A DNA stretch of 64,000 bases from Mobula hypostoma (Eukaryota): NCBI RefSeq assembly GCF_963921235.1, contig NC_086108.1, positions 3,348,001 to 3,412,000 of the forward strand. Reading direction: 5' to 3'. The notes beneath the pieces are model-generated. The model worked only from the letters and a program-made list of their open reading frames with translations. It made no database searches and was not told the origin of the DNA. Made by a program: the position numbers and the translations under genes. Each line of letters starts with the position of its first letter. Within the stretch, counting starts at the first letter, position 1. This document shows positions 1,321 to 54,606 of the stretch, one piece after another.

Positions 1321-2788
1321 TCTTGTCCCTCTTCCTTCCCTTTCTCCCATAGTCCCCTCTCCTCTCCTATCAGGTTCCATCTTCTTCAACTCTTTATTAT
1401 TTAGTTCTTTCTTTATTAAGATACAACACTTAATGCCCCAGTTTCACAGGACAATTACAATGACCATTAGCCCACCAACCTGTATGTTTTCGGACAGTGG
1501 AAGTGGAAACCAATGTGGTCATGGGGAGAATGTACAAACTCCTTACAGGCAGCAGTGAGGATTGAACCTGTGTCGCCTGGACTGTAAAGTGTTGATATAA
1601 CTCCTGCCCTACTGTTCCACCCCATCTCTTCCATCTACCCCCTCCCAGCTTCTTACTGCATTCCTATCCCCCACCCATCCATCTTCCCCCTCACCTGGTC
1701 TCACCTAAAAGCTGCCTTCCCCTCTCCCTACCTTCTTATTCTGGCTGTTTCCCCCTGCTTTTCCTGTCTTGATGAAGCGTCTCGACCCAAAACATCGACT
1801 GTTTATTCATTTCCATAGATGTTGCCTGACCTGCCGAGCTCCTCGAGCATTTTGTGTATGTGCTCAAGATTTCCAGCACCTGCAGAATCACTTGGGATGA
1901 AACGTCTCTCAAACACCGTTACAGCTGCTACCTTAACAGTGTGGTGCAGTTCATTTTTCTACTCATCATTTAGGTTACAAAAGAAATTGCTGGGGATATT
2001 TTTTGTAACTGTGCAGAATCTTTGCTTTACTCCCTGGAGATATGGAGTGTGAATGTGAATAATGCACTGGGCAACATAGTGGTTGGTGTCAGAGACCAGA
2101 CGGGCTTTACCGGTGCCATGGTAGTGTAGTGGTCATCACGACGTTTTACAGTACAGGCGACCCAGGTACATTTCCCGCTGCTGGCTGTAAGGAGCTTTAC
2201 TTTCTTGCCATGATTGCGTGGGTATCCTCCAGGTGGGTATACTCTGGATCCCTCTCACAGTAGGTTAATTGCTCATTGTGAATTGTCCCATGATTAGGCG
2301 AGGGTTCAGTTGGGGGATTGTTAAGGGCCAGAAGAGCCAACTCTGTGCTGTCCCTCAATACAGAAAATACAAATTACCATCTTCTGGGCAGTGTCCACTC
2401 CCCCCAACAGCCATTATCAATACCCTTCAGAGATTGTCTTGCCTGGTGTCAGTGGTCGCATAACCAGGACTTGTGATCTACACCAGCTGCTCACATGGCT
2501 TCATGTCATCGTGATCAGGTGAGGGGCGTTGGGGGGGTGGAGCTAAGCAGCTGCTAAAGCTGGCCCAGGGGTGACCTGCAGGCTAGCGGAGGTAAGGAGC
2601 AACGATGGTACAGATGTCCTTCCACCCTGCCAGCCAACTTGTTTATATGCCACTTCTGTACCTATTACAAAGATCTACGTGCGTCAATTTAAAATATCTC
2701 ATTTTGATTTCTTCCATTTCACCTCTTCAAATATCAGTACCTTTCATGAGGAAATGGAAAGAAGTATAAGACCAACAATGACATCAGT

Positions 2789-4975: not shown

Positions 4976-5143
4976 GGAAGTGTATCTCAGAGTAGTTTAT
5001 GGTGATATTTGCATTTTGATAAATTTATTTTGAATTTTGAACTTTGAACCTTGACTCCCAACTCCTTTGGTAGCTCCCATTTCTGAATTTATTCCATATT
5101 TAGAAAATAGCATGCACTATATAAATAGTAACGGGGAGCTTAC

Positions 5144-16179: not shown

Positions 16180-16592
16180 CAGTGATTAATGCCCCACCTC
16201 CCCCTCGTACCCCATCCGTTATTTATTTATATACACACATTCTTTCTCTCTCTCTCCTTTTTCTCCCTCTGTCCCTCTCACTATACCCCTTGCCCATCCT
16301 CTGGGCTTCCCCCCTCCCCCTTTTCCTTCTTCCCAGACCTCCTGTCCCATGATCCTCTCGTATCCCTTTTGCCAATCAACTGTCCAGCTCTTGGCTCCAT
16401 CCCTCCCCCTCCTGTCTTCTCCTATCATTTTGGATCTCCCCCTCCCCCTCCCCCTCCCACTTTCAAATCTCTTACTAACTCTTCCTTCAGTTCGTCCTGA
16501 CGAAGGGTCTCGGCCTGAAACGTCGACTGTACCTCTTCCTAGAGATGCTGCCTGGCCTGCTGCGTTCACCAGCAACTTTGATGTGTGTTGCT
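16180..16592 (+). mobile_element. Penelope-like element terminal repeat fragment
   Basis: Same repeat that adjoins GIY-YIG fragments elsewhere in the window; contains a hammerhead motif. Confidence 0.7.
16494..16529 (+). ncRNA. Minimal hammerhead ribozyme motif (CUGACGA variant) in a Penelope-like repeat
   Basis: GUC-CUGACGA-A-GGGU(CUCG)GCCU-GAAAC-GUC-GAC; catalytic core intact, short stem I. Confidence 0.65.
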
Positions 16593-18439
16593 TCAAGTCA
16601 TAGCCCACTGCATTAGAAGATAGATTCTCCACCTCCTTCTCCAGCCCTATTATCTTTTAGAGATGCACCCCTTCTGGCCCAAAGAGCCTCCTAATTATAT
16701 CTATGGGACGAATTAACCAACTAAACCATGCACCGTGGGAATGTGGGAGAAGACCATAGCACCCTGAGGAAATCCACACAGTCATGGCAAGGACATACAA
16801 AATCCTGACGAACATGATAGAATTGAACCCAGGTCGCTGACGCTAACTGCTATGTTAATGTACGATGCCAGAAATGGCTGAGGGTGCAATTGAAATAATT
16901 TCACTACCTCATATATTTTTTTTCATATTGTAATTTGTGGTTTTTTTATGCATTGCAACATACTGCTGCCGCAAAACAACACATTTTATGACATATGTCA
17001 GAGATCTTAAACCTGATTTTGATTCTGACTTCGCTAAGCACTGAACTTAAGATTCAAGATTCAAGATTGTTTTATCGTCATTCTTCAGTACAGGAGTGTA
17101 AAGGAGGACAAAATGATTGTTACTCCAGATCTAACACAGTGGGGGTGGGGGGGGGCTAAGCAGGTGCTACTCCTTGCCCAAGGGTGACCTACAGACTAGC
17201 GGAGGGAAGGAGTGCCTTTCACCTCCTTTGGCAGAGATGCATCTCCACCCCACTATCTGATGTACACAACACATATAAAGATAATCTTTGTTTCTTTTTA
17301 ATAGGTTAGCAGAGTGAGCTTTGGTCTAAAGAAAACGAATCAGGGGAATTAATAATAGAACAAAAAGAAACGGCAGATGAATTAAACAAATACCTTGCAC
17401 CAGTCTTCAATTAATAATGTTTGGGAAACAGTTATAAATCCGAACACTGGAGGGAACTCAGGAAAGTTACAACCACAAGGGCATGCCACTGAACTTCAGA
17501 TCCTTTCAGACTTCATCCTGGGGAAACTCAGGTGAGGTGGTTCAAGTGTTGGGTTTAATTTTCCACGATTCAGTCAAGGTTTCATTTGAATATAATTTAA
17601 CAAATGTCACTATATTATTCAAACATGGGGGAGACAGAAAATAAAGAAAGGGCAGCAAATCTTAAACACAAGAGATTCTGCAGATGCTAGAAGTCCAGCG
17701 AAACACACACAAAATGCCAGAGGAACTCAGCAGGTCAGGCAGCATCTACGGAGGAGAATAAACTATTGACGCATTGGGCTGAAGCCCTTCATTAGGACTG
17801 ATCATGAAATCATCAAGATCTAATGAAGCACCTCCACACGAAACATCTACTGTTTATTTCGCTCCATAGACACTGCCTGACCTGCTGAGTTCCTCCAGCA
17901 TTTTGTGTGTGTTGCAGGAAATGATCTAAAATTTAGCTGAATCTACATTGGGAGAGTGCTAGAAACAACTATTAAATACATAATATTTAGAAAAAAATAA
18001 GGTAATCATGCAAATTCAAGGTGGTTTTGTGAGAGGTCAGCGATTTATTGGAGATCTTTGAAGAAGGAAAATATGCTGTGTATAAGATACTTTATTGATC
18101 CCAAAGGAAATTACAGTGTCACAGTAGCATTACAAGTGCACGGATATGCAAATATACAATAAGTATATTTGTATATTGGACAAGTAAGAAAGAATTAAAA
18201 TAAGTTACCTCAAACAGTCTGACTGGAGGGGTTCATCACTTCCCCAGCTACAGGTTGACTCATTATAGAGCCTAATGGCCGAGGGTGATGGCGAAACTAC
18301 ATAGATTTTCAGAAGGCATTTGATAAGGGACAGCATCAAAGCTTACTGCAGACAATGAAAACCCGTGCAGGTTGATGTGTTGATGTGAATAGAAAAATGC
18401 TGGTTAACAGGAAACAAACAGTAGGTGAAGAGCATAGAC

Positions 18440-19530
18440 AGTATGCTGGGGGAGCTCAGCAGGTGAGGCAGCATCCATGGAAATGAACCAACAGTCAATG
18501 TTTCAGGCGGAGACCCTTCTTCAGGACTAGAAAGGAAGGGAGAGGATGCCGGAATAACAAAAATGTGAGGGGGAGGGAAAGGAGGATCGCTAGGTGATTG
18601 GTGAAGCCAGGTGGGTAGGAAATGTACAGGGCTGGAGAGGAAGGAATCTGATAGGAGAGGAGAGTGATCTTAGGAGAAAGGGAAGGGGGAGGGGACCCAG
18701 GTGGTGAGAGGCAGGCGAGAAGAGGTAAGAGGTCAGAGTTGGGAAAAGAAGAAGAGGGGAGGGGGAAGGGGACATCTCCAAAGTGCCGATTGCACAACCT
18801 CCAACTCTGACTCTGGCCTTGACCTCCAGGCCGGTTCTTCACCGACTGCCACTGGAACCCCCGTCTCCTCTTCGCTAACCACCACTCCGCTATCTCGTCT
18901 CTCTCAGGTCCCATGCCAGCTCTTGGGCCCTTGGAGACTCCATCTTCCTCTCACCCCACCATCCCTGAACACTCAAAATAAAAGCCTTCGACGGGAGGGG
19001 GAAGGGAATTTTTTTTTACCGGAAGGAGAAATCAATATTCATGTCATCAGGTTGGGGGCTACCCAAACGGAATATAAGGTGTTGCTCCTCCACCCTGAGG
19101 GTGGACTCATCATGGTACAAGAGGAGGTTATGGATTGACATGTTGGAATGGGAATAGGAATTGTAATTAAAACTTTGGGAAGTTCCGCTTTTAGCGGATG
19201 GAGCAGAGGTGCTCGAAGAAATGGTCCCCCAATTTATTGTAGGTCTCACCAATGTAGAGGAGACTGCCTCGGGAGCACCGGATACAATAGACCGCCCTAG
19301 CAAATTTGCAGATGAAGTGTTACCTCAGCTGGAAGGACAGTTTGGGGCCCCGAATGGAGGGGAGGGAGGAGGTGAATGAGCAGCTGTAGCACTTTGGCCA
19401 GCTGAAAGAGATAAGTGCTGAGAGGGACAAATGGACAAGGGGATCACGGAGGGAGCGATGAAGAGTCACAGCACAAAACATTGACCATATATGTCCCTCC
19501 ATAGATGCTGCCTGACTTGCTGAGTTCCTC
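18440..19530 (-). mobile_element. Penelope-like element fragment (GIY-YIG endonuclease + terminal repeat)
   Basis: Minus strand encodes CSRGSLLYIGET..KLGDHFFEHL and ..RVEEQHLIFRLGS.QPD.MNIDFS; degenerate hammerhead near 18490-18530. Confidence 0.8.
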
Positions 19531-20409
19531 CAACATCTTGCTCAGAAGGTGTAAATGTTTTTTATACAGATTATGAGTGGAGTGTAATAGAAATCAGTGC
19601 TGGGGACTTGTCTGTGATGTTGGCTGCATCACAGCCTGGTATGGAGGCTTCAATACACTGGATCTCGCGAGGACGAGTGTAGACTCAGCCAACTCCATCA
19701 CAGGCAACCACCTCCCCACCAGTGAGGACATCTACAAGAGGCAGTGCCTCAAGAAGGGGACATGCATCATAAGGACCCCCACCACTGGGACATAGCCTCT
19801 CCTTGTTACTACAATCAGGGAGGAGGAACAAGAGCCTAAAGGTAGACACTCCGTGATTCAGTAACAGCTTTCTACTTTGCCATCATATATCTGCATGATC
19901 CATGAACCCATGAACACGATCAGAATCAGGTTTAAGATCACTAGCATATGTTGTGAAATTTGATATCTTTGCAGCAGCAGTGCAATGCAATACATGATAA
20001 TAGAGGGAAAAAACTGAATTACAGTATGTACACACACACATATATATATAGCAAATTGTTAAAAGTAAATTAGTGCAAAAACATAAATTAGTCAATTCAT
20101 GTTCATGAGTTCAGTGTCCATTCAGAAATTAGATGGCAGAGGGGAAGAAGCTGTTCCTGAATCATTGAGTTTGTGCCTTCAGGCTCCTGTACCTCCTCCC
20201 TGATGGTAGCAATGAGTAGGGGGCATGTCCTGGGTGAGGGGGGTCCTTAATGTTGGACACCACCTTTTTAAGGCTTCACTCCTTGCAGATGTCCTGGATA
20301 CTACAGAGTCTAGTGCTCATGATGGAGCTGATAAGACTATAAAACTCACTGCAGTTTATTTTGATCCTGTGCAGTAGCTCCCCCACACAGAAAGTGAGGC
20401 AGCCAGTCA

Positions 20410-23900: not shown

Positions 23901-24739
23901 CAATTAATCTGATCCTAATTCAAGAGGGGCAAAAGTTACCAAGGATAGATGGGAATGTAGAATTGAGATTACAATCATATTGGACATGAGCTTATGAAAT
24001 GGCAAATGGAGCAACTCTTAGTACCAATTTGTACATGGAATCAGCATCCCAACCCTAGGAGAACTAACGATAGTGGGAGGCCTCCCATAGCACTGCTCAC
24101 ATTGATGCAACAAATAATAGAGCAGGGAGGGATTGTGAGTGTACGTACAACACTTGGGAGGCCACAACCTGAGGACTATATAGGAAGAAACTGCGCTGTA
24201 GAGTTGCAGAGGAAAGTTACATACTGCTGGGACTGTTAGATATGTCCAAGTAGAAATACACACAATGTACTGGAGGAGCTCAGCAGGTCAGGCAGCACCC
24301 ATTGACGGGATTAAACAGTCGGCCTTTCGGGCCGAGACCCTTCATCGGGACCGGAAAGGAAGGGGGAAGAAGTCAGACTATGAAGATGTGGGGGAGGGAA
24401 GGAAGAAGTACCAGGTGGCAGGCGATAGGTGCAACCGGGAGAAGGTGAGGGGAGTGGGGTGAAGTGAAGAGCTGAGAAGTTGACTGGTGGAAGAGATAAA
24501 GGGCTGGAGAAGGGGGAATCTGATAGGAGAGGACAGAAGACCATGGAAGGATGGAAAGGGGGAGGAGCACCAGAGGGAGGCGATGGGCAGGTAAGAAGGT
24601 GTGAGAGGAAACAAGAATGCGCAATGGTGAAGGGGGGGGAACTATGGGAAGTTCCAGAAATTGATGCCATTTCTAAGTAGAAAAACTAGCAGAAATAAGG
24701 TTACATTGTTTGGAAAATTGAGGAGGTGGAGCTAAGTAG

Positions 24740-28699: not shown

Positions 28700-29195
28700 G
28701 GACAAAACAAACACACATACACAAAATGCTGGAGGAACTCAGCATCTACGACCAGAGTAACACACACAAAACACTGGAAGAATCAGCCGGTCAGGCAGCA
28801 TCTGTGGAGGAAGGAGGATAGCTAGAAGGTGATAGGTGAAGCCAGGTGGGTGGGAAATGAAAAAGGGCTGGAGAGGAGAGTTGACCATAGGAGATAGGGA
28901 AGGAGGAGGGGACCCAGGGGGCGATGATAGGCAAGTGAGAAGAGGTAAGGGGACAGAGTGGAAGCTACTCAGACAGAATATATGGTGCTGCTCCTCCACC
29001 CTGCGGTTGGCACAAAAGGAGGCCGTGGGCCGACACATCAGAACAGGAATTGGAAAAGGAATTAAAATGTTTGGCCACCAAGAAGTCCCACTTGTGGAGC
29101 AGAGGTGCTCGATGAAGCAGTCCCCCAACGTTTGATGGGTCTCACCAACATAGAGGAGGCTGCATCAGGAGCACCGGACTCAACAGATGACCCCA
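28700..29195 (-). mobile_element. Penelope-like GIY-YIG fragment
   Basis: GDCFIEHL..RVEEQHHIFCL plus terminal repeat sequence. Confidence 0.7.
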
Positions 29196-29241
29196 GTCAT
29201 GTAACATATTTTTCTTATTAATTAACAGAATTACTTAGTAC

Positions 29242-30752: not shown

Positions 30753-31536
30753 CTTCTTCTTCTTCTTCTATTTCCAGCTGTTTAGACACATCTAGGCGTA
30801 TTACAGCCCTCCCACAGGATATATAATTAATTATAGAACTTCAAGGAACTCAAATTCTCGAATACAACCTAGTCTCACACATAAACTGAATGATAGACTC
30901 TTCAATCAGATGTTGATTCTCTTGATGGCCAAACAAAGATTGAATAGAAAACCAAAATAAATATGATCCTCTCATATCCCTTTTGCCAATCACCTGTCCA
31001 GCTCTTGACTCCATCCCTCCCCCTCCTGTCTTCTCCTATCGTTTTAGATCTCCCCCCTCCCCCTACCACTTTCAAATCTCTTACTCACTCTTCCTTCAGT
31101 TAGTCCTGACAAAGGGTCTCGGCCCGAAACGTCGACTGTACCTCTTCCTAGAGATGCTGCCTGGCCTGCTGCGTTCACCAGCAACTTTGATGTGTGTTGC
31201 ATAAATTTAAACTAGATAGCCTGTTGAACGGCATGCTTCTTTCAATTTTGTATCGATTACGCCTCAGCAAAACATGCTGGACAGTCTCTGGGCTACCACA
31301 GTCACATAATCCAGTAGCATGTTTTCCTATTATCTTTAAATAATAGTTTAGCCCACAATGCCCCAACCTGAGTCTTCTAAATTTCACCATATCTCTACGA
31401 CTTAAAAGGTAACCCTTTTAACTCGTGAGTGACTAGAAAAATAATGCCTGCCCCTTAATTCATTTTTTCAATCCTCCTGCCACTTCTTCGCTATACCTTT
31501 TTTAATCCTACTTCTCAATTCTGCTCTGCCTAGGGG
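30753..31536 (-). mobile_element. 5'-truncated Nimb/I-group LINE with 12-bp TSD; Penelope repeat nested at ~30964-31200
   Basis: RLRLGHCGLNYYLKIIGKHATGLCDCGSPETVQHVLL zinc knuckle; (GAA)n tail; TSD aaccggctcttt at 30741-30752 and 31537-31548. Confidence 0.85.
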
Positions 31537-37912: not shown

Positions 37913-37949
37913 GCAATGGGAGCATTTAATACTGAGTTTGATCGAGGTG

Positions 37950-40900
37950 CGACTGCACAGGCGTGTGGACGTCAGCGGGTTAGACTGGCAGGAAGAATTT
38001 AAAAAGAAGGCAGCTTTATAGAGTAGGAGGGCTTTGGCGATAATGGATCGAGGCGAGGTAAGATACTTGTGAAGGATAGGAACAGGAGGTATGTCTGTGA
38101 GGCCGGTGTTCTGTACTGGGTGTCGGATGTGGGATGTCTGGGAGACTCCCAGCCTCCTGGATGGCCACATCTGTGTCAAGTGCGTCGAGCTGCAGCTCCT
38201 CAGGGACCATGTTAGTGAAATGGAAATGCAGCTTGATGACCTTCGTCTGGTCAGGGAGAGTGAGGAGGTGATAGAGAGGAGCTATAGGCAGGTAGTCACA
38301 CCGGGGCCTGGGGAGACAGATAACTGCGTAACAGACAGGAGAGGGAAGGGCAAGAGTCAGACACTAGAGAGTACCCCTGTGGCTGTACCCGTACCCCTTC
38401 ACAATAAGTACTCCTGTTTGAGTACTGTGGGGGAGATGGCCTACCTGGGGGAAGCAACAGTGGCCGTGCCTCTGGCGTAGAGTCTGGCCTTGTGGCTCAG
38501 AAGGGTAGGGAAAGAAAGAGGATGGCAGCAATGATAGGGGACTCTATAGTTAGGGGGTCAGACAGGCGATTCTGTGGACACAGGAAAGAAACTCGGATGG
38601 TAGTTTGCCTCCCAGGTGCCAGGGTCCGGGATGTTTCTGATCACATCCACGATATCCTGAAGTGCGAAGGAGAACAGCCAGAGGTCGTGGTACATATTGG
38701 TACCAACGACATAGGCAGGAAAAGGGAGGCAGTCCTGAAAACAGACTACAGGGAGTTAGGAAAGAAGTTGAGAAGCAGAACCACAAGGGTAGTAATCTTG
38801 GGATTACTGCCTGTGCCACGTGACGGTGAGTATGGGAACAGAGTGAGGTGGAGGATAAATGCGTGGCTGAGAGATTGGAGCAGGGGCAAGGGTTCAAATT
38901 TCTGGATCATTGGGACCTCTTTTGGGACAGGCATGACCTGTTCAATAAGGATGGGTTGCACTTGAATCCACGCAGGACCAATATCCTGGCGGGGAGGTTT
39001 GCTAAGGCTACTGGGGAGAGTTTAAACTAGAATTGCTGGGGGGGGGGGAACCGAACTGAAGAGACGGAGGAAAGGGAGGTTGGCTCACAAATAGAGAAAG
39101 CTTGAAGGCAGTGTGAGAGGGAGGACAGACATGTAATAAAGAAGAGATACGCTCAGACCAATGGTTTGAGATGTGTCTATTTTAATCCAAGAGATATCAT
39201 AAACAAAGCGGATTAACTTAAAAGCGTGGGTCAGCACTTGGAGCTATGATGTTGTGGCCATTACATAGACCTGGATGGCTCAGGGGCAGGAATGGCTACT
39301 TAGAGTGCCAGGCTTTAGATGTTTCAGGAAGGACAGGGAGGGAGGCAAAAGAGGTGGGGGCATGGCACTGTTAATCAGAGACAGTGTCACGGCTGTAGAA
39401 AAGGAGGATGTCATGGAGGGATTGTCTACTGAGTCTCTGTGGGTAGAAGTTAGAAACAGGAAGGGGTCAATAACTCTACTGGGTGTTTTTTTATAGATCA
39501 CCCAATAGTAACAGGGACATCAAGGAGCAGATTGGGAGACAGATTCTGGAAAGGTGTAATAATAACAGGGTTGTCGTGGTGGGAGATCTTAATTTCCCAA
39601 ATATTGATTGGCATCTCCCTAGAGCAAGGGGATTAGATGGGATGGAGTTTGTTAGGTGTGTTCAGGAAGGTTTCCTGACACAATATGTAGATAAGACTAC
39701 AAACGGAGAGGCTGTACTTGATCTGGTATTGGGAAATGAACCTGGTCAGGTGTCAGGTCTCTCAGTGGGAGAGCGTTTTGGAGATAGTGATCACTAACTC
39801 CTTTACATGTCATTGGAGAGGGATAGGAACAGACAAGTTAGGAAAGCGTTTCATTGGATTAAGGGGAAATATGAAGCAATCAGGCAGGAACTTGAAAGCA
39901 TAAATTGGGAACAGATATTCTGAGGCAAATGTATGGCAGAAATGTGGCAAATGTTCAGGGAATATTTGAGTGGCGTTCTGCATAGGTACGTTCCAATGAG
40001 ACGAAAAGGATAGTAGGGTACATGAACCGTGGTGTACAAAGGCTGTTGAAAATCTAGTCAAGTAGAAAAGAAAAGCTTATGAAAGGTTCAAAAAACTAGG
40101 TAATGAAAGAGATCTAGAAGATTATAAGACTAGCAGGAAGAATGAAATTAAGAGAGCCAGAAGGGGCCATGAGAAGGCTTTGGCGAGCAAGATTAAGGAA
40201 AACCCCAAGGCATTCTACAAGTATGTGAAGAGCAAGAGGATAAGACGTGAGAGAATAGGACCAATCAAGAGAGACAGTGGAAAAGTGTGTATGGAACCAA
40301 AGGAGATTACAGAGATACTTATTGAATATTTTGCTTCAGTATTCACTATGCGAAAGGATCTTGGCAATTATAGGGATGACTTACAGTGGATTAGGCATAT
40401 AGACATTAAGAAAGAGGATGTGCTGGAGCTTTTGGAAAGCATCAGGTTGGATAAGTCTCTGGGACCGGATGAAATGTACCCCAGGCTACTGTGGGAGGTG
40501 AGGGAGGAGATTGCTGAGCCTCTGGCGATGATCTTTGCACCATCAATGGGGATGGGAGAGATTCCGGAGAATTGGGGGGTTGCAGATGTTGTTCCCTTAT
40601 TCAAGATTGTCCAGGAAATTATAGACCCCAGTGAGTCTTACTTCAGTGGTTGGTAAGTTGATAGAAAAGAACCCGAGAGGCAGGATTTATGAACATTTGG
40701 AGAGGCATAATATGATTAGGGGTAGTCAGCATGGCTTTGTCAAAGGCAGGTCGTGCCTTACGAGCCTGATTGAATTTTTTGAGGATGTGACATGGATGAA
40801 GGTAGAGCAGTAGATGTAGTGTATATGGATTTTAGCAAGACATTTGATAAGGTACCCCATGAAAGTAAGGAGGCATGGGATCCAAGGGGACTTTGCCTTG

Positions 40901-41972
40901 TGGGTCCAGAATTGGCTTGCTCACAGAAGGCAAAGAGTGGTTGTAGACGGGTCATATTCTGCATGGAGGTTGGTGACCAGTGGTGTGCCTCAGGGATCTG
41001 TTCTGGGACCCCTACTCTTTGTGATTTTTATAAATGACCTGGATGAGGAGGTGGAGGGATGGGTTCGTAAGTTTGCTAATGACACAAAGGTTGGGGGTGC
41101 TGTGTTTAGTGTGGAGGGCTGTCAGAGGTTACAGTGGAACATCGATAGAATGCAAAACTGGGCTGAGAAGTGGCAGATGGAGTTCAACCCAGATAAGTGT
41201 GAGGTGGTTCATTTTGGTAAGTCAAATGTGATGACAGAATATAGTATTAATGGTAAGACTCTTGGCAGTGTGGAGGATCAGAGGGATCTTGGGGTCCGAG
41301 TCCATAGGACACTCAAAGCTGCTGCGCAGGTTGACTCTGTGGTTAAGAAGGCATATGGTGCATTGGCCTTCATCAACCATAGGATTGAGTTTAAGAGCTG
41401 AGAGATAATGTTACAGCTTTATAGGACCCTGGTCAGACCCCACTTAGAGTACTGTGCTCAGTTCTGGTCACCTCACTACAGGAAGGATGTGGAAACCATA
41501 GAAAGGGTGCAGAGGAGATTTACAAGGATGTTGCCTGGATTGGGGAGCATGCCTTATGAGAATAGGTTGAGTGAACTCGGCCTTTTCTCCTTGGAGCGGC
41601 AGAGGATGAGAGGTGACCTGATAGAAGTGTATAAGACGATGAGAGGCATTGATAATGTGGACCGTCAGAGGCTTTTTCCCAGGGCTGAAATGGATAGTAC
41701 AATTTTAAGGTGCTTGAAAGTAGGTACAGAGGAGATGTCAGGGGTAAGTTTTTTACGCAGAGAGTGGTGAGTGTGTGGAATGGGCTGCCGGCGACGGTGG
41801 TGGAGGCAGATACGATAGGGTCTTTTAAGAGACTCCTGGACAGGTACATGAAGCTTAGAAAAATAGAGGGCTATGGGTAATCCTAGGTAATTTCTAAGTA
41901 AGTACATGTTCGGCTCAGCACTGTGGGCCGAAGGGCCTGTATTGTGCTGTAGGTTTTCTATGTTTCTATATT
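37950..41972 (+). mobile_element. Near full-length CR1 LINE, decayed: ORF1 (Zn finger, coiled coil, SGNH esterase) and ORF2 (APE + RT)
   Basis: CTGCRMW..CVKC; IGDSIVRG, CLPGARV, VHIGTND, DGLHL; VVGDLNFP, LDLVL, GDSDH; SGVPQGSVLGP, KFANDTK; CR1 tail. Multiple stops and frameshifts. Confidence 0.95.
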
Positions 41973-42435: not shown

Positions 42436-44937
42436 TTCACCACAGGGACATGAGAGACGTGATGATGATGTCAGGGCACACCACTATTCTTGTGGCTGGA
42501 AATTCGGTTTGCTGTTAACTGAATTAGACTTGTGGACAATTAAGTGTATTAATCTGTTATGAAAACCTGGTTGTACTTTTAATTAAGCCTGTGTAATGAC
42601 ATAATTGAAGAAATGTATCAATCAAAAGTTAGTTAATTAAGTTTTCTGTTTCACATATGTGGAGAGATGTGTAGGGTGATTGGCTTTGGTCACCCACGTG
42701 AGCACCATTTTTAAATAAATCGCTCATTGCTCAGACACCAGCTGCATGTTGCCTTTTTCATTTGCTCCTACAAATGTAAAATACTCATAGAAAAGTACAG
42801 CACTGACACAGGCACTTTGTCCATGCTGAACCATTTAAACAGCCTACTCCCATCGACCCACCCCAGGACCATAGCCCTCCATATCCTTCCCATCCATCTA
42901 CCTAACAGAGTCATAACAAAGTCAGAAAAAGTTGGAAATACTCAGGAGGCCAGACTGCATCTGTGGGAAGAACAGAGCTAGCATCTCAGGCTAAAGTTCC
43001 TTTGTTAGAACTCGGAAGCAGAGAGAAGTTTGAAGTTCAAAGTAAATTTATTATCAAAGTACGTACAGTATGTCCCCATATACAACCCTGAGATTCATTT
43101 TCCTGCAGGTATTCACAGTAGAACAAAGAAATACAACGGAATCAATGAAAAACTACACACAAAGACTGACAAACACCCAATATGCAAAAGATAGTCAGAT
43201 AGATGATGATGATTATGAAGACACGTAGTCCTCTTTTATTGTCATTTAGTACTGCATGCATTAAGAAATGATACATTATTTCCTCCGGTGTAATATCACA
43301 AAAAACAGGACAGACCAAGACTGAAAAAACTGACAAAACCACATAATTACAACATATAGTTGCAACAGTGCACAATACCATGACTTGATGAAGAAGTCCA
43401 TGAGCACAGTAAAAGTTCAAAGTTTCTCAAATGTCCCACATCTCACGCAGATGGGAGAAGGAAGAAAAACTCTCCCTGCCATGCCCGACCACAATCCGAC
43501 TCTGAGTCATCTGAAAACTTCGAGCTCTGATCAGCTCTCCGACACTGAGTACTGAGCGCCATCTCTGTCCGAACGATTCGACCTCCTTCTCGGTCGCCAA
43601 AAGCAGGCAAGGCCGGGGATTTTGAGGCCTCCCGATAAGACTGAGAATGAGTTGTCGAATTCTCGAAAGTGAGTCCGTAGGTTGCGGGATCAATTCAGTG
43701 TTGGGGTGGGTGACATCGTTCACGCTAGTTCAGGACCCTAATAGTTGAAGGGTACTAACTGTTCCTGAACCTGGTGTCAACGGGCAATTTCCCTCCACAG
43801 ATGCTGTCTAACCCACTGAGTTCCTCTGGCATTTTTTGGGAAGAAGCTCACAGGCAGGCTCCTCGAACCCCGCCATAAGGCTCTTTACCCTCCTGGAGAC
43901 ACAAGAGACTGCAGCTGCTGGAACTGGAACAAAGTCAAACTGCTGGAGGGACTCAGCAGGTCAGACAGCATCTGTGAAGGGATTCAAAGATCCAAAGAAC
44001 ATTTATGATGAAAGTATGCATGTAGTATACAACCCTGAGATTTATCTTCCCCACAGACAGGCACAAAACAAAGAAGGAAGATGGAACCACACCGTTCAAA
44101 GAAAAGCATCAGACATCAGACTGCCACGCACAAAAAAAATTGTGCAAATGGCAACAAAAAAAGCAAGATAAAGCACAGAATATAGAACACAAAATCAAAA
44201 GGCATATTTTAGTACAGCTCAGCTCAGCGATTTTTATCTGCAGGCTGCCCAATTCAAAACGGACATTCAACGTTTTGGGTCGTGACCTTTCACCTGGAAG
44301 TCCTGAAACTCTGATGGTCCATTGCCCTCCACAGACGCTGCCTGACCAGCTAGCTTCCTCCAGCAGATGCTCTTTTGTCCGCTTTCCATTTCTGACTAAG
44401 TATCTTTAACCTGATATGTTAGCTCTGACCCTTTTCCAACAGACACCGCCCAACCTGCTCAGATCTCTCAGCATTTTCTGTTTTTATTTTAGATCTCCAA
44501 CATCCTCAGTTATTTTGCTTCCATGGGTAAACAACCGATGCAGGGATCATCATCGTTATGTGCCGTGCTGTATGGTGTGGGCAATCCTGGCCTTCCGTCT
44601 GTCTTTAACCTGACCGTTGTCTGTGGGGAAGACACCCTTCACGCTGTTGTTCTTACTCCTTTCTCTATCCATGACCAGGGTTGTTCTTGGCAAGTTTTTC
44701 TACAGTACTGGTTTGCCATTTCCTTCTTCTGGGCAGTGTCTTTACAAGATGGGTGACCCCAGACATTATCAATACTCTTCAGAGACTGTTCGCCTGGCAC
44801 TTTGCTCAAGGGTGACCTGTAGGCTAGCAGAGGGAATGAATGCCTTGGGTAGACACTTGTCTCCACCTGGACACCAAAAATGCATGGAGTTCAAAGGCCC
44901 CAACTAAATTTATTAAGAAGATATATAGTATACTTGC

Positions 44938-44995: not shown

Positions 44996-45551
44996 CTGTA
45001 GAAAGAGACTGAGTGAGAATGACTGTGTCAACTAACATGCCACTTTACCATTATGTGAGATGAGGAATTGCTGTGTGCTTGTTCTTGCAGAAACATGGCT
45101 AAAGAACAACATCCATGCACCATCAAACTACAGGCCATGACACCCAGGGACTTAGGCTATATTTTTTGCATCACTGTATGTAACTATATGTGCCTTGTGC
45201 TATGTGTGTTTTGCATCTTAGACCCAAAGTAATGTTGTTTAGTTTGACTGTATTCATACGTAGGTTGAATGACAATCGAACTTGAAATTGAACATCCGCA
45301 TCCACATGGTCCATATCTCTTAATTCCATTGCCCATTGATCTGTCTAAATTCCTCTTAAAATATTGCTATTGCATGGCCTCCTCTTGTGTCAAGATGATA
45401 TTCTGTCTGGGTAGCCTCCAACCTGATGGCATGAACATCGATTTCTCCTTACGGTAAAAAAAATTCTTCATCCTCCTATTCCCCACTCTGGCCTCTTATC
45501 TCTTCTTACCTGACTATTTCCTCCCCTCTGGTCTCCCTTCTGTTTCTCCTA

Positions 45552-48500
45552 AAGTGCCTATAAAAAGTATTCACCCCCTTGGAAGTTCTGATGTTTTATT
45601 GTTTTACAACACTGAATCATGGTGGATTTAATTAGCTTTTTTTGAACTGATCAACAGAAAAAGACTCTTTCGTGTCAAGGTGAAAACAGATCTCTACAAA
45701 GTGATCTAAATTAATTACAACTACAAAACACAAAATAATTGATTGCTTAAGTATTCACACCCTTCAAATCAGTATTTAGTAGATACACCTTTGGCAACAA
45801 TTACAGTCTGTGTGGATAGGTCTCCACCAGCTTTGCACATCTGGACACTGCAATTTTTCCCCATTCTTCTTTACAAAACTGCTCAAGCTCAGATTGCATG
45901 GGGATCATGAGTGAGCAAACCTTTTTAAGTCCAACCACAAATTCTCAATTGAATTGAGGTCTGGACTCTGACTTAGCCATTATAGGACATTAATTTTGTT
46001 ATTTTTAAGCCATTCCTGTGAAGCTTTGGCTTTTTGCTTGGGGTCATTGTCTTGCTGGAAAACAAATCTTCTCCCAATTCGCAGTTCTCTTGCAGACTGA
46101 ATCAGGTTTTCCTCCAGGATTTCCCTGTATTTTACTGCATTCATTTTACCCTCTACCTTCACAAGCCTTCCAGGGCCTGCTGCAGTGAAGCATCCCCACA
46201 GAATGATGCAGCCACCACCATGCTTCATGGTAGGGATGGTGTGTTTTTGATGATATGCAGTGTTTGGCTTACTCCAAACATAGCGTTTAGTCTGATGACC
46301 AAAAAGCTCAATTTTGGTTTCATCAGACCATAGAACCTTCTTCCAGCTGACTTCAGAGTCTCCCCCATGCCTTCTGGCAAACTCTAGCTGAGATTTCATG
46401 TTGAGTTTTTTTCCCAACAGTGGCTTTCTCTTTGCCACCCTCCCATAAAGCTGTGACTGGTGAAGCAACTGGGTAACAATTGTTGTATGCGCAGTCTCTC
46501 CCATCTCAGCCACTGAAGCTTGTAACTCCTTCATAAGCCTCCCTCACTAGTCCCTTCTTGCACGGTCGGTCACTCAGTTTTTGAGGACGGCCTGCTCTAG
46601 GCAGATTTACAGCTGAGCCATATTCTTTCCATTTCTTGATGATTGACTGAACTGTACTCCAAGGGATATTCAGTGACTTGGAAATTTTCTTGTATCCATC
46701 TCCTGACTTGTGCTTTTCAGTAACCTTTCACAGTGTTGCTTGGAGTGTTCTTTTGTCTTTATGGTGTTGTTTTTGCCAGGATACTGACTCACCAGCAGTT
46801 GGATTTTCCAGATACAGGTGTATTTTCACTACTATCAATTGAAACACCTTGACTGCACTCGTTGATCTCTGTTTAACTAATTATGTGACTTCTAAAACCA
46901 ATGGCTGCACCAGTCACAAACAAGAGAAAATCTGCAGATGTTGGAAATGAAGAAATGTACACAAAATGCTGGAGGAACTCAGCATGCTGGGTAGCATCCA
47001 TGGAAAAGAGAACAGTCGATGTTTGGGGCCGAGACCCTTCATCAGGACTGGGGAGAAAAAGATGAGGAGTCTGCATTAGAAGGTGGCGGAGGGGAGGAAG
47101 AAACAGAAGGTGATAGGTGACAGGAGGGGTGAAGTAAAGAGCTGGGAAGTCGATTGGTGAAAGAAATACAGGGCTGGAGAAGGAGGAATCTGATAAGAGA
47201 GGACAGAAGGCCATTGAAGAAAGAAAAAGGGGAGGAGCACCAGAGGGAGGCAATGGGCAGGCAAGACGATAAAGTGAGAGAAGGAAAAGGGGATGAGGAA
47301 TAGAGAGGGGGAGGGCAATTACCAGAAGTTCAAGAAATTGATATTCATGCCATCAGGTTGGAGGCTACCAAAACAGAATATAGTTGTTGTTCCTCCACTC
47401 TGAGTGTGACCTCATCACGACAGTAGAGCAGGTCATGGATGGGCATATGGGAATGGGAAGTTGAATTAAAATAGGGAGATCCCACTTGTTCTGGCAATGG
47501 AGTGTAGGTGCTCAGCAAAGCGGTCTCCCAATCTACGTCAGGTCTCACCGATATACAAGAGGCCACACTGGGAGCATCAGATACAATAGACTCAGAAGTG
47601 ATGTGTTGCCTCACCTGGAATGACTGGGACCCTGAATGGTGGTGAGGGAGGAGGTGTAGGGGCAGGTGTAACACTTGTACTGCTTGCAAGGCTAAGTGCC
47701 AGGACAGAGATCAGTGGGGAAGGATGAATGGTTTAGGGACGATTTGGTGTGTCGTTCTTATTTCAAGGGGAATAGAATATACAAGCAAGGAGATAATGCT
47801 GAGCCTTTATAAGACACTAGTCAGGCTGCACTTGGAGTGTTGTCAACAGTTTTGGGCACCATATCTCAGAAAGGATGTGTTGTCATTGGACAGAGTCCAG
47901 AGGATGATTCCGGGAATGAAGGGGTTAATATATGAGGAGCATTTCACAGCTTTGGGCCTGTACTCACTGGAATTTAGAAGAATGTGGTGGGGGGTGGTGG
48001 AGTCTCATTGATACCCACCAAACGTTGAAAGGAGTAGATACGATGGGTGTGGAAAGGATGTTTCCTCTGGTGGGGGCATCTAGAACTAGAGCGCACAGCC
48101 TCAAAACTGAGGGGCGGCCTTTTAGAACAGAAGTAAGGAGGAATTTTTTTAGCCAGAGTAGTGAATCTGTGGAATGCTCTGCCACAGACTGCGGTGGAGG
48201 TCAACTCCATGGCTATATCTAAGGCAGGAGTTGATAGTTTCCTGATCAGTCAGGGCATCAAAGGACATGGCGAGAAGGCAGGTGTGTGGAGTTGAGAGCG
48301 GGATCTGGGATCAGCCATGATGGACTGGAGGAGCTCACTCAATGGGCTGAATGGCCTACTTCTGCCCCGATGACTTATGGTCTAATTAAAGGGGGTGAAT
48401 ACTTGCGCAATCAATTATTTTGTGTTTTATATTTGTAATAAATTTAGATCGCTTTGTAAAGATTGGTTTTCACTTTGACATGATAGAGCCTTACTCTGTT

Positions 48501-48591
48501 GATCGGTATCAAAAAAGCCAAATTAAATCCACTGTGATTCAATGTTGTAAAACAATAAAACAAGGGGGGTGAACACTTTTTATAGGCACTC
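45552..48591 (-). mobile_element. Full-length Tc1 transposon carrying nested Penelope (~46915-47730) and CR1 (~47760-48385) insertions
   Basis: TA-flanked TIRs (a)agtgcctataaaaagtattcacccc / ggggtgaacactttttataggcact; 184-aa open transposase segment WSDETKIELFG..FQQDNDPK. Confidence 0.93.
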
Positions 48592-48715
48592 TATGGTCCA
48601 CTCTCCTCTCCTATCACACTGCTTCTTCGCCAGTCCTTTCCCTTTCCCTTTCCCACCCATCCACTCCCCCCCCCCCAACCAGCTTTTTATTCTGGCCTCT
48701 TTCCCTCTCCCTTTC

Positions 48716-48753
48716 CAGTCCTGATGAAGGGTCTCGGCCCGAAACGTCGACTG
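48716..48753 (+). ncRNA. Minimal type I hammerhead ribozyme motif in a Penelope-like terminal repeat
   Basis: CAGUC-CUGAUGA-A-GGGU(CUCG)GCCC-GAAAC-GUC^-GACUG: 5-bp stem I, intact core, 4-bp stem II, palindromic ACGU stem III. Predicted cleavage after 48748. Confidence 0.8.
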
Positions 48754-49140
48754 TTTATTCGTCTCCATAGATGCTGCCTGAGCTGCCCAGTGTTTGTGTG
48801 TGTTGCTCCTTACACTGTCCCCCACTTCTCTGAAACCTATTTTCACTCTGGCAAAAAATATTGCGATTGTCTACCTTACCACTGCCTCTCAAATTCTATC
48901 AGGTGTCTCCTCAGATCCTGGTGTTCAGGCAAAAACAATCCAACCTGTCCCAGCTCAGGGGGTCACAACCTGGGGCCTACACACCCCTTGCTTAATGGTA
49001 TTGGTCCAGGACATAAAAAAGGCCTGTTCTAGCCGATACTTTCTGTTCCAGGCAACATCCCAGTGACACAAGCAATCTGCTGGAGGTACGCAGCATGTAG
49101 AGCAATATCTGTGTTTGGAAAGAAATTGTCCACATTTATG

Positions 49141-49783: not shown

Positions 49784-50559
49784 TTTTGACGTTAAATCGT
49801 ACGTCAGAGAATGGTGAGGGGCAATGACCAATATAAAGTTATTTATTTATTGAGATAGAGTTCGGGCCGATCCTTCCGGCCTTTCGAGCCACTCTGCCCA
49901 GCAATCCCCCAATTTAATCCTGGCCTAATCGTGGGATAATTTACCCGGAGGAAGCCCACAGGGAGAATGTACAAATTCCTTACATACAGAGGCAGGAATT
50001 GAACCCAGGTCACTGTGCTAACACTACACTACCATGCCACCCCTCGGTACAGTAGCATAAAAAGGAGAGGGAGAGGAGTGGGACAGAGGGCAGAGATGCC
50101 AAATCCACCTGCTACTTTCTCCCTGTTCCACCCTTCTCTGCTCCCATAATTGGCATAATTTGCCCATCATCTTTCACCCCTCTGCTCAGGCTCTTGTCTC
50201 ACCACTTCCCTCTCCTTTTTATATAACATATAACCATATAACAATTACAGCATGGAAACAGGCCATCTCAGCCCTTCTAGTCAACTATTATATTGGTCAA
50301 CTCCTCACTGTAGTCTCAGTCTTGGTGCAAGCTTTCATCCTGAAGCAACAACATTTCCTTCCCCCTCGACAGATGCTATTTGACCCACTGAGTTTCCCAA
50401 ACAGCAAGCAGGAGCACAAGAAGCAGCAGCAATTTCATTTAGGTCCACAGCTAGAGTTTGAAAAAGGTAGTGCTTCATGGCAGTTTTTGAAGTTGGACTG
50501 TGCCCAATCAGTGAACAGGATTCATTAGAAAGGGCAGATAAAAGTAAGGCTGGGGAAAG

Positions 50560-53500
50560 TGGAGCGGCCATTGTGTGAGTGGGCCAGTGCTGGAGTGGCT
50601 TTGGCTCATCAGGCTTCAGCAAGATCAGCCTTGGGTGGAGGCAAATAGCTGGTAAATTCCTTCTTCCTCTTTATTTGTCACTCCTGGTCAGTTAGTGCAG
50701 TGAGAATGCCTCCACGGGCTGCGTTTTGTTCTGGGTGCGAGATGTGGGAATTCTGAGAGATCTCCAGTCTCACCAAGTGTGTTGAGTTGCAACTCCTCAG
50801 AGAACATGTTAAGGAACTGCAGGTGTGGCTCAATGATCTTCAGCTCATACGGGAGAATGAGGAGGTGATGGACAGGAGCTACAGGGAAGAAGTCACTCCT
50901 ATGTTACAGGAGGCAGGTAACTGGGTGACTATCATGAGAAGGGAAGTGGGCAGCCAGTGCAGAGTGTCCTCGTGGCCATTCCCCTCAACAATAAGAATAC
51001 CACTTTGGGTATTGTTGTGGGGGATGACCTAGCAAGGGGAACGACAGTGACGGGATTTCTGGCACTGGGTCTGACGACTGCAGTGGTGATAGGAGATTGC
51101 ACAGGGAACCGCAGTGATGGGATTTTTGGCACTGGGTCTGACGACTGCAGTGGTGATAGGAGATTACACAGTCAGAGGAAGAGGCGAGATTCTGTGGCTG
51201 CGATAGAGGCACCTGGATGGTATGTTGCCTCCCTGGTGCTAGGGTCAGGGATGATTCAGGCTGGGTCCATGGCATTCGAAAGTGGGAGGGTGAGCAGCCA
51301 GAAGTCTCAGTACATATTGACACCACTGGCATAGGTAGGAAAGGTGAGGAGGTCCTGAAGAGAGAGTTTAGAGAGCTAGGTAGAAAGTTGAAAAAGCAGG
51401 ACCCCCAGGGTAGTAATCTCTGGTTTGCTGCCTGTGTCACGTGCCAGTGAGACTAAGAATAGGATGATTTGTCAGGTGAAGCATGGCTGAGGAGCTGGTG
51501 CAGGGGGCAGGAGGTTCAGGTTTCTAGATTATTGGGATGTCTTCTGGGTAAGATAAAACCTATACAAAAGGAATGGGTTACACCTGAACCCAAGGGGGAC
51601 CAAAATCCCCGCAGGCAGGTTTGCTGGAGCTTAGGATGGTTTAAACTAATTTGGCAGGGGAATGGGAACTGGAGTGATAATGCTGAGGGTGATCTAATGT
51701 GTTTACAGAGGCAATGTGTAGTGAGACTGCAGGCAAGGAGGGGTTGATGATTGGGCAAGATTGCAGTCAACGGGATGAGTTGCAATGTAAAAGGTGGACA
51801 AAATTGAAAAGGGTGATGAATACAGGACTGAAGGTGTTTTATCTGAATCCACACAGTTTATGGAATAAGGTAGATGAACTTGTATCACAGTTACAAATTG
51901 GCAGGTATGATGTTGTGAGCATTACCGAACAGAGGCTAAAAGAAGATTATAGCTGGGAGCTTAACATCTGAAGGTACACGTTGTATTGAAAGGACAGGCA
52001 GGTAGGGCGAATGGTAGGAGAAGCTGTTGGTAAAAAAAATTAAATCAGATCATTAGAAAGAGGTGACGTAGGATCAGAAGGTGTAGAATTGTGGCTAGAG
52101 CTAAGAAACTGCAAGGGTAAAAAGACCCTGAAGGGAGTTATATACAGACCTTCAAACAAAAGTAAACATGGAGTCTACAAATTATAATGAGAGCTAGTAA
52201 ATGCATGTCAAGGGGGATTTCAATATGCAGGTAGACAGGGAAAATCAGTCTGGTGTTGGATTCCAAGAAGGGGAATTTGTAGAATCCCTACAAGATGGTT
52301 TTTTAGAGCAGCTTGTGGTTGAGCCTACTAGGCGATCAGCTATTCTGGATTTGGTGTTGTGCAATGAACTGGAATTGATTAGAGAGCTTAAGGTAAAGGA
52401 ACCCTTAGGGGAGTGATCATAACATGATAAAATTCACCCTGCAGTTTGAGGAGAAGCTAAAGTCAGATGTATCAATATTACACTTAGCTGAAGGGAATTA
52501 CAGAGGTATGAGAAAAGAGGTGATCAAAATTGAATGGAAGGGAACACTAGTAGGGATAACGGCAGAGCAACAATGGCTGGAATTTCTGGGAGCATTTTGG
52601 AAGACGTAGGGTAGATGCATCCCAAAGAAGAAGTAGTATTCTAAAGGCAGGATGAGGCAACTGTGGCTGACAAGAGAAGTTAAAGACAACATAAACCCAA
52701 AGAGGGGGCGTATAATAGAGCAAAAATTAGTGGGGTGGCAACTAAAAAAGTCATAAAGATGGAATACGAAGGGAAGTTAGCCAATACTATTAAAGAAGAT
52801 AACAAAAGTTTCCTCAGATACATGAAGTGTATAAGAGAGGCAAGAGTAGATATTGGTCCACTGGAAGATGATGCTAGAGAGGTAGTAATGGGGAATAAGG
52901 AAATGGTGGATAAACTGAATAAGTATTTTGCAACAGTGTTCATTGTGGAAGACACTATCAGTATGCTGGAAGTTTGAGAGTGTTGGGAGCAGAAGTGTGT
53001 GAAGTTGCCATTATTGGGGAGAAGGTGCTTGGGAAACTGAAAGGCCTGAAGGTAAGTAGTCACCTGGACCAGATGGGGTACACCCCTGAGATCTGAAAGA
53101 GGTGGCTGAAGAGATCATGGAGGCATTAGTAATGATCTTTCATAAATCAATGGATTCTAACATGGTTTCGGAGAAATGGAAATTTGCAAATAACACCCCT
53201 CTCTTCAAGAAACCAGAGAGGCAGAAGAAAGGAAATTAAAGGTCAGTTAGTCTGACCTCAGTAGCTGGGAAGTTGTTGGAGTCGATTGTTAAGGATGTGG
53301 TCTCAGAGTACTTGGAGGCACATGATAAAATAGGCTGTAGTCAGCATGGTTTCCTTAAAGGAAAATCTTGCCTGACAAATCTGTTGGAATTCTTTGAAGA
53401 AATAACAAGCAGGATAGACAGAGGAGAATCAGTTGACGTTGTGTACTTGGATTTTCAGAAGGCCTTTGACAAAGTGCCACACATGAAGCTGCTTATCAAG

Positions 53501-54606
53501 CAATGAGCCCGTGGTATTACAGAAATGATACTAGCATTGATAGAACATTGGCTGACTGGCAGGAGGCAAAGAGAGGAAATAAAGGGACAAATGAGAAAAT
53601 CTGCAGGTGCTGGAAATCCACAAAATGCTGGAGGAACTCAGCAGGCCAGGCAGTATCTATGAAAAAGTACAGTCAATGTTTTGGGCCCAGACCCTTTGGC
53701 AGGTCTGGAAATAGAGGGTCTTTTCTAGTTGGCTGCAGGTGACTCGTGTTGTTCCACAGGAGTCTGTATTTGGACTGCTTCTTTTTATGTTATATGTCAA
53801 TGATTTGCATGAGGGATTTGATTGCTTTGTAGCTAAGTTTGTAGACGTAAGGATGTAATGCTGAGGCTTTATAAGGCACTGGTGAGGCCTCACTTGGAGT
53901 ATTGTGAACAGTTTTTGGCTCCTTGTCTATGAAAGGACGTGCTGACATTGGAGAGTGTTCAAAGGAGGGTCACAAAAATAATCCTAGGATTGAAAGGCTT
54001 ATCATACGAGGAGCATTTGATGATTCTGGGCCTATACTAACTGGAATTCAGAAGACTGGGAGGAGGGGTCTAATTGAAACCTATAGATTGTTGAAAGGCC
54101 TCGACAGAGTTGAAGTGGAGAGGATGTTTCCTATGGTGGAGGAGCCCAAGGCCAGAGGATGCAGACACAGAATAAAAGGACATCTTTGTAGAATGGAGAG
54201 GAGGTATCTCTTTAACCAGATAGTGGTGAATCTGTGGAATTTGTTGCCACAGGTGGCTGTGAATTCCAAGTCATTAGGTATATTTAAGGAAGAGGTTGAT
54301 TAAGATTCTTGATTAGTCAGGGCATGAAAGGATAGGGGAGATCGGTCTACATCCCTGGGTTCTGAAAGAGATAGTGGAGGCATGAGTAATGATCTTTCAT
54401 GAACCGATAGATTCTAGCATGGTTCTGGAGGGCTGGAAAATTGCAAATGTCACTCCGCTCTTCAAGAAGACATAGAGGCAGAAGAAAGGAAATTAAAGGC
54501 CAGTTAGAGATTGGGCTGAGAGGGAATATGGATCAGCTATAATGAAATGGCAGTGCAGAATCGATGGACAAAAGGGCTTAATTGTGCTCCTATATCTTAT
54601 GGTCTA
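50560..54606 (+). mobile_element. Second long CR1 LINE, heavily decayed
   Basis: ORF1 (CCLPGARV, VHIDT) and ORF2 (KGDFNM, ILDLVLCN, SQHGFLKGKSCLTNL, LDFQKAFDKVPH) fragments; Penelope repeat nested at ~53585-53705. Confidence 0.9.

Follow-up and report, generated by a model that had tools for sequence, protein, structure and literature searches.

A minimal hammerhead motif in a fossil copy of an abundant Penelope-like retroelement family of rays

In metazoan Penelope-like elements, minimal hammerhead ribozymes (min-HHRs) have been described from the pseudo-LTRs (Cervera and de la Pena 2014, PMC4209133). The accessible text of that study reports no cleavage of the minimal motifs as monomers and low cleavage as dimers, and the dimer requirement, a result of Lunse et al., is restated in a review (PMC6765202). 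In the Penelope element of Drosophila virilis, an intron ends at helix I (PMC4209133). Neptune and Nematis are marked by a CX2-5CxxC linker preceding the GIY-YIG endonuclease (Craig et al. 2021, PMC8557442). For Poseidon of Anolis carolinensis, the available text reports that the hammerhead was cleaved in the presence of protein, that core mutants abolished cleavage, that no read ends fell at the cut site, and that catalytic mutants were still inserted in vitro (Frangieh et al. 2024, PMC11167929). Non-LTR retrozymes, in turn, derive from Penelope-related repeats and were found in one chondrichthyan sampled (bioRxiv 10.64898/2026.07.22.740005).

We analyzed a stretch of 64,000 nucleotides from Mobula hypostoma (contig NC_086108.1, positions 3,348,001 to 3,412,000; hereafter, the window), in which a type I hammerhead had been proposed at 48716-48753, as one of a family carried by an abundant Penelope-like repeat. 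Very probably, this motif represents the minimal hammerhead carried by a Neptune-type Penelope-like retroelement that underwent massive expansion in a ray lineage, and the focal copy is a fossil of the decaying family. The motif is the following:

48716..48753, plus strand: intact motif of the minimal type I hammerhead, with cleavage predicted 3' of 48748 (direct reading, base scoring, descriptor, published consensus)

As read directly, stem I pairs 48716-48720 with 48749-48753 and stops at 5 bp, the core CUGAUGA occupies 48721-48727, and GAAA lies at 48741-48744. Stem II (48729-48732 with 48737-48740; 3 G-C pairs and one U-G) encloses a loop at 48733-48736 and is separated from the core by a single unpaired A at 48728. 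Of helix III, only the palindrome ACGU (48744-48747) is present, without a loop, and cleavage is predicted after C48748 (C17). The CUGANGA, GAAA, and UH boxes are thus present in type I order, together with stems I and II. The unpaired base between positions 9 and 10.1 (A48728) is kept in all 12 motif-bearing copies of the window, and the G10.1-C11.1 pair corresponds to G48729-C48740. The original prediction had drawn a perfect hammerhead, and its stems, core, and cut site stand, but it left out A48728, a published mark of the class. The accessible description of min-HHRs (PMC4209133) agrees with the focal motif in the core boxes, the extra base between 9 and 10.1, the G10.1-C11.1 pair, the palindromic 15.2-16.2 without loop 3, and the short helix I, whereas helix II, with 4 bp here, is below most of those listed. 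Judged by its sequence, the focal motif carries every sequence feature of the Penelope min-HHR, a catalytic consensus shared across animals.

The bare core pattern is within chance: it has 1 match in the window against a shuffle mean of 0.44, a count reached by 37 of 100 shuffles. By contrast, the full descriptor, combining the core, both stems, and the palindrome, matches the window twice (16497+ and 48721+) and none of 500 Markov-simulated windows. The proposed type I hammerhead motif is thereby confirmed, with stems, core, and palindrome all read. Sequences resembling the 38-base motif at ≤12 mismatches number 11 in the window and 0 in each of 60 simulated windows, and a profile search recovered 26 family pieces at E<0.001, the best match on the reversed control having E=0.16. 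Rfam yielded 0 window matches at the gathering score, and the 3 chance matches near the motif at E≤10 include no hammerhead. Because Rfam does not detect the motif, annotation misses it, as had been anticipated. We also considered an intronic type I hammerhead of the canonical or ultraconserved kind (Schistosoma Sm-alpha; human RECK type), which has the same type I topology and core. Hammerheads of this kind possess a looped helix III and an extended helix I that makes tertiary contacts; those of amniotes are orthologously conserved. This identity was rejected, the focal motif having no loop 3, a stem I of 5 bp, and no Rfam hammerhead match.

The focal copy is split by a DNA transposon, and its parts and insertions are as follows (copies are designated by a coordinate and strand):

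45392..45551, plus strand: left half of the focal copy, comprising the final GIY-YIG codons, their stop (45455-45457), and the first part of the 3' repeat (tblastn, 74% over 19 aa to protein P0005, E 3e-4)
45552..48591, minus strand: Tc1-type DNA transposon splitting the focal copy (inverted ends 82% alike over 219 columns; Pfam HTH_SB and HTH_Tnp_Tc3_2)
46915..47778, minus strand: younger family copy inside the Tc1, with linker zinc finger, broken GIY-YIG, 3' repeat, motif at 47013-47050 (G12 and palindrome changed), and tail
48594..48807, plus strand: right half of the focal Penelope-like copy, with pyrimidine-rich 3' repeat, hammerhead, and downstream end, without tail (70% to the 18529- copy over 209 columns; profile E 1.5e-27)

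A TA duplication flanks the Tc1 (45550-45551 and 48592-48593), and the two focal halves, 45392-45551 and 48594 onward, are collinear along the 18529- copy. The focal hammerhead seems at first to lack an endonuclease remnant but does have one, the 3-kb Tc1 separating it from its own GIY-YIG stop. A terminal-repeat position behind the RT-GIY-YIG frame was found for the focal copy, across the Tc1, and also for 47050- and 18529-. The Tc1 was itself interrupted later by the 47050- copy and a LINE fragment (47760-48383), giving a four-layer nest at 45392-48807. Since the Tc1 lies inside the focal copy and the younger 47050- copy inside the Tc1, the family was active both before and after the Tc1 insertion, and the focal copy is old. 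Despite being older than a Tc1 with inverted ends of only 82% likeness, it has a motif that matches the consensus throughout.

The carrier can be recognized from its endonuclease. Upstream of 47050-, 18529-, and the motif-less 28809- copy there are broken GIY-YIG frames, and 2 of these 3 remnants (upstream of 47050- and 18529-) match Pfam PF01541 at E 2e-4, slightly under the curated cut-off; the GIY-YIG remnants reported earlier beside copies of the motif are therefore real. Word-indexed protein searches with two short endonuclease pieces gave 4 and 2 candidates and no relatives; an unindexed profile search then succeeded, with a profile of the three window remnants matching 1478 proteins at E≤0.001. 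Three of ten of these proteins scanned are 816-883 aa long with a C-terminal GIY-YIG, 2 of them also with a Pfam RT match. The window remnants match the C termini of these proteins and terminate in a stop codon, after which comes the 3' repeat. The closest protein used, P0005 of the stingray Hypanus sabinus (mis-named "mucin-2"), matches two window pieces, with 67% likeness over 52 aa and 82% over 34 aa, the latter covering a Cys-x4-Cys-x2-Cys linker read ahead of the endonuclease in the 47050- copy. Candidate CCHH Cys/His residues of the endonuclease are scattered over the broken copies, and the window contains neither an intact RT-EN frame nor a tandem repeat-frame-repeat unit.

These features resemble those available for the Neptune clade of EN+ elements (PMC8557442), namely, a C-terminal GIY-YIG after a CX2-5CxxC linker, a terminal-repeat hammerhead, an optional tail of 30-40 bases, and inverted 5'-truncated partners. 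The Neptune placement is putative and rests on the endonuclease and linker, no RT being left in the window copies and the linker being shared by Nematis. The window family is also like Poseidon (PMC11167929) in having a minimal hammerhead near the 3' end and two 3' ends, or a tail; Poseidon, however, belongs to another clade, its reported cleavage is protein-dependent, and its insertion in vitro has no need of the motif, whereas the evidence here is of sequence only. Together, the GIY-YIG link and the fit to the published consensus support the proposal that an abundant Penelope-like element carries a minimal hammerhead motif in its terminal repeat.

The 8 further copies reported earlier all occur in the window (1764+, 16492+, 31101+, 17800-, 18529-, 24353-, 47050-, and 53707-), and 3 motif-bearing pieces had been overlooked (17815+, 19450+, and 44301-), for a total of 12 with motif. 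The pieces outside the focal locus are:

1764..1801, plus strand: decayed motif (C3, G12, and palindrome changed)
16492..16529, plus strand: second intact motif, of a second subfamily (N7=C, G-U closing pair, stem I of 3 bp plus a mismatch; 94% to the 31101 copy over 243 columns)
17664..17915, both strands: back-to-back inverted pair 17800-/17815+, each beginning at the motif and each with a dead core
18430..19457, minus strand: family copy with broken GIY-YIG (19019-19457) and motif at 18492-18529 (core kept, palindrome broken)
19450..19542, plus strand: inverted partner of the 18529- copy, beginning within the motif, with a dead core
24251..24665, minus strand: family copy, motif at 24316-24353 (U4 and U16.1 changed)
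28756..29215, minus strand: family copy (28809-) with broken GIY-YIG, motif deleted
31101..31138, plus strand: second-subfamily motif, G8 changed
44262..44367, both strands: old inverted pair, with the decayed motif of 44301- and the downstream part in 44302+
53593..53717, minus strand: short copy beginning ~10 bases before the motif at 53670-53707 (A6, G8, and G12 changed), tail present

Older, heavily decayed relatives of the repeat were also seen at 13193-13348, 28535-28615, 29852-29940, 33229-33340, 42930-43018, 43776-43985, 44413-44481, 49062-49137, and 50306-50403, several with traces of another stem II. The 18529- copy carries a purine-rich insert of ~260 bases in its 3' repeat (18760-19010).

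The copies form four inverted junctions (17800-/17815+, the 18529- copy with 19450+, 44297-/44302+, and 13236-/13294+), and 4 of 11 aligned copies run ~30-35 bases beyond the end common to 4 others. No head-to-tail arrays of motif units occur in the window, only dispersed single copies and inverted pairs, an arrangement like that described in the available part of PMC4209133, where motifs are mainly single and dispersed, from truncated elements, with some opposite-strand pairs. Non-LTR retrozymes are similar, as far as their accessible description goes (bioRxiv 10.64898/2026.07.22.740005), in combining a type I hammerhead with short repeats resembling Penelope terminal repeats. A retrozyme identity was nonetheless rejected, retrozymes being defined there by tandem motif units, whereas the window copies are dispersed and four of them lie behind GIY-YIG remnants.

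To gauge the family beyond the window, contigs of four public runs, two of DNA (from two organisms) and two guessed to be of RNA, were aligned to 48480-48900 at 80% likeness. The DNA runs gave 71,373 and 62,904 aligned contigs and the guessed-RNA runs 6,653 and 4,053, counts that include the adjacent Tc1 end; the summed depth in one run (X1), which is not a copy number, was ~5 million on the motif versus 11-19 on the unique flank. Even so, these figures show a very large family, as had been claimed earlier. None of the four runs held a contig spanning the focal locus, and its unique flank (48825-48900) was uncovered in the guessed-RNA runs, neither of which we count as evidence; likewise, none of the RNA datasets on record, among the matches listed, contained the 1-kb focal locus. 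A hammerhead pattern scan of viral contigs gave 0 matches. Similar hammerhead-like cores were observed in two metagenome contigs (L001 549-575, minus strand; L002 10-36, plus strand), with unrelated flanks.

The contigs and the window copies bear on the possibility that the short copies starting at the motif are not truncations and represent a SINE- or retrozyme-like non-autonomous element mobilized by the Penelope protein. By eye, 5 of the 12 motif-bearing copies begin within ~10 bases of the 5' edge of the motif (17800-, 17815+, 19450+, 44301-, and 53707-), positions 48716-48719 rank, in each of the four runs, with the highest entries listed for loose ends whose upstream letters do not match (agreement 0.33-0.36), and retrozymes do derive from such repeats, also in one chondrichthyan (bioRxiv 10.64898/2026.07.22.740005). 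However, 4 of these 5 copies belong to inverted junctions, a known Penelope insertion product in the available accounts (PMC4209133, PMC8557442), and the window has no head-to-tail motif array. The starts, moreover, lie at the 5' edge and not at the predicted cut-site position 48749, which is absent among the best 24 of 1138 loose-end rows, no 5' truncation at the cleavage site was seen by eye among 18 anchored copies, and clipping of alignments at the edge of a conserved block can imitate the signal. We regard a non-autonomous element as unlikely. No tRNA genes were found in the window, and therefore no tRNA-headed SINE.

Base-by-base scoring of the 12 motif-bearing copies showed that core and palindrome are both kept in 2 (48716+ and 16492+); 18529- keeps the core and has lost the palindrome, and the remaining 9 have one to four core changes. 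Of the 12 copies, 5 preserve the palindrome, and 6 of the 11 non-focal ones have lost G12. Differences affect 28 of 99 cells at CpG sites and 49 of 308 elsewhere; essential non-CpG sites are changed in 12 of 99 cells, which is not significantly fewer than the 37 of 209 at other non-CpG sites (p=0.25). There is no covariation among 11 aligned window copies: 1 of 11 stem pairs has a two-sided change, a result equalled in 291 of 500 shuffles. The description of the copies as a family of ribozymes is consequently not borne out (core or palindrome is broken in 10 of 12, with no covariation among 11), most of the copies in the window being decayed remnants and not functional ribozymes. The focal motif, by comparison, equals the alignment consensus at 38 of 38 positions, which could reflect selection; the copy was singled out for being perfect, and the rest of the family bears no sign of selection.

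The fractions of the contig variants are depth-weighted, biased to query-like copies, and taken among the variants listed. Of these, only N7 T>C (45% and 46%) and C11.1>T (44% and 42%) exceed 20% within the motif; the latter is a one-sided change from G-C to G-U that retains the closing pair. Transitions at the four motif CpGs amount to 9-15% each, in loop and core alike, and G12>A to 14%, while several variants at 14-57% fall just 3' of the motif, at 48758-48763. The pattern reads as two master variants that respect the putative ribozyme (N7 free, G-U tolerated), over neutral CpG decay that does not spare catalytic bases, and suggests that the motif is maintained in source elements and decays in inserted copies.

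Folding favors an inactive rod. In the best predicted monomer fold (-13.7 kcal/mol, ensemble frequency 0.74), G5-G8 pair with 15.2-17, and the folding z-scores are not significant (-1.10 over 51 bases, +0.53 over 217 bases). With nearest-neighbor energies, which ignore core and tertiary contacts, the active dimer (4-bp helix III, swapped stem I strands) is predicted at -19.9 kcal/mol versus -25.4 for two inactive monomers and -33.7 for the inactive dimer, and the active heterodimer of 16492+ and 48716+ at -14.5 versus -22.5 for two monomers. These predictions accord with the published absence of monomer cleavage and low dimer cleavage (PMC4209133), with the dimer requirement restated in PMC6765202, and with the protein-assisted anole motif (PMC11167929). 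A dimer design, as originally proposed, fits the sequence of the focal motif, which has no helix III of its own, only the palindrome.

The motif also coincides with sequences resembling splice sites:

48690-48718; 16470-16491; 31080-31100; 45454-45459; 19015-19020: splice-like features

An acceptor-like YAG begins the 5' strand of stem I after a pyrimidine tract (pyrimidine 0.76-0.92 in 7 of 8 scored copies). In the second subfamily, a branch-point-like word lies just upstream of the motif, and in all 3 copies keeping the endonuclease stop, this stop is overlapped by a GT donor-like site. An intron of ~270-300 bases in the terminal repeat is possible from these features, its junction not being placeable from protein sequence alone. 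The motif might accordingly be retained as a 3' splice site, a start codon, or a protein-binding hairpin of the element and never cleave. The YAG after the pyrimidine tract, the branch-point-like word, and the donor-like site on the stop codon would fit such a role, as would the Drosophila virilis intron ending at helix I (PMC4209133), the inactive rod of the monomer at its frequency of 0.74, and the in vitro insertion of anole catalytic mutants (PMC11167929). Yet the entire 3' repeat is pyrimidine-rich, so that the tract is not specific to the acceptor-like site; the core, extra base, G-C closing pair, and palindrome fit a catalytic consensus across animals; the two abundant variants avoid essential bases; and the anole motif does cleave, core mutants stopping it (PMC11167929). 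A motif that never cleaves is, in our assessment, quite improbable.

Under the preferred reading, that of a minimal hammerhead of a Neptune-type element, the motif of the source element would lie in the terminal repeat, ~270-300 bases 3' of the stop codon that closes the frame for RT and GIY-YIG. Two motifs on a tandem transcript would pair via the four-base palindrome and exchange stem I strands, each core being built from two motifs, and the dimeric core would cut after C17, probably slowly and only with help of the element's protein. Reverse transcription would begin ~55-90 bases 3' of the motif, the two 3' ends giving the tail, and would in most cases end prematurely and leave behind short 3' pieces, frequently accompanied by an inverted partner. 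Inserted copies, being unselected, would lose their CpGs, and the focal copy would be a fossil, split by the Tc1, whose 38 bases have so far stayed unmutated. The motif, family, GIY-YIG link, two 3' ends, inverted pairs, and decay are direct observations; dimer cleavage, protein help, and the insertion route are extrapolated from published work on other elements. By that analogy, the most likely role of the motif is the protein-assisted processing of tandem transcripts from active elements, single genomic fragments being silent.

No host domains were found in the 423 stop-free frames of at least 55 codons in the window (complexity-filtered, with the tandem repeat at 2700-5050 excluded). Pfam matches in 19 of these frames are all to transposon-type domains, including ALKBH8_N and GDSL/OSK, which we take to be marks of LINE frames. 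The window could lie between genes or within a long intron, and the earlier placement of many copies inside introns is conjectural here. Two decayed long LINE copies were noted at 37800-41900 and 50700-54300, the first with esterase (GDSL), endonuclease, and RT in order on the plus strand, as well as ~five tandem 95-base units (9865-10333) resembling a LINE 3' end elsewhere in the window and a long G-rich tandem array of short units (2784-5004), open in several frames on both strands. Among 25 candidates, 2 are Mobula gene models that contain a peptide derived from the repeat (P0151 and P0152; STARD3NL isoform X3 and coenzyme A synthase), which suggests that some copies lie within genes. The element peptides in these two models and in P0005 reflect either exonisation or annotation error.

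Intact sense copies in introns or untranslated regions could then pair in cis or trans and cut host pre-mRNA, some of them, perhaps the focal one, under selection. This would account for a perfect motif in a copy older than its internal Tc1 and is compatible with both intact copies (16492+ and 48716+) lying on the plus strand, 32 kb apart, with family sequence in the two guessed-RNA runs (6,653 and 4,053 contigs), and with the two ray gene models carrying repeat-derived peptide. Nevertheless, essential bases decay as fast as others, one copy of 12 is perfect and was chosen for its perfection, the heterodimer is unfavorable (-14.5 versus -22.5 kcal/mol for the monomers), and the window has no host exon among its 423 frames. 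The accessible reports further describe minimal motifs without monomer cleavage and low as dimers (PMC4209133) and an anole motif that depends on protein and leaves no read ends at the cut site (PMC11167929). Cutting of host RNA by the copies is very unlikely. The window's 2 intact motifs in 64 kb correspond to ~31,000 per Gb, with a Poisson range of ~4,000-110,000. In its strongest form, the idea holds that rays carry tens of thousands of intact Penelope hammerheads per Gb, each over a usable 3' splice site in stem I, with sense copies cutting and re-splicing host pre-mRNAs and some, such as 48716, selected; we consider this extremely unlikely. Were pairing sense copies to process host pre-mRNA, a transposon fossil would be a genome-wide RNA processing signal.

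The accessible part of supplementary file 2 of the 2014 study (PMC4209133) names no cartilaginous fish, and a literature search without most subscription papers, Repbase, and Dfam found no published account of a ray hammerhead family. With the link of minimal hammerheads to Penelope-like elements known since 2014, the present finding is correct but ordinary. The motif density here may exceed that behind the ~4,000 motifs of coelacanth and ~9,000 of Xenopus given in the available text of PMC4209133. Rays thus extend the list of hosts, at a density possibly much higher than reported for frog or coelacanth. The family is, moreover, a natural data set on the role of the motif, which may be approached through selection confined to source elements, as the data here suggest, through avoidance of the sense strand in introns, and through RNA ends.
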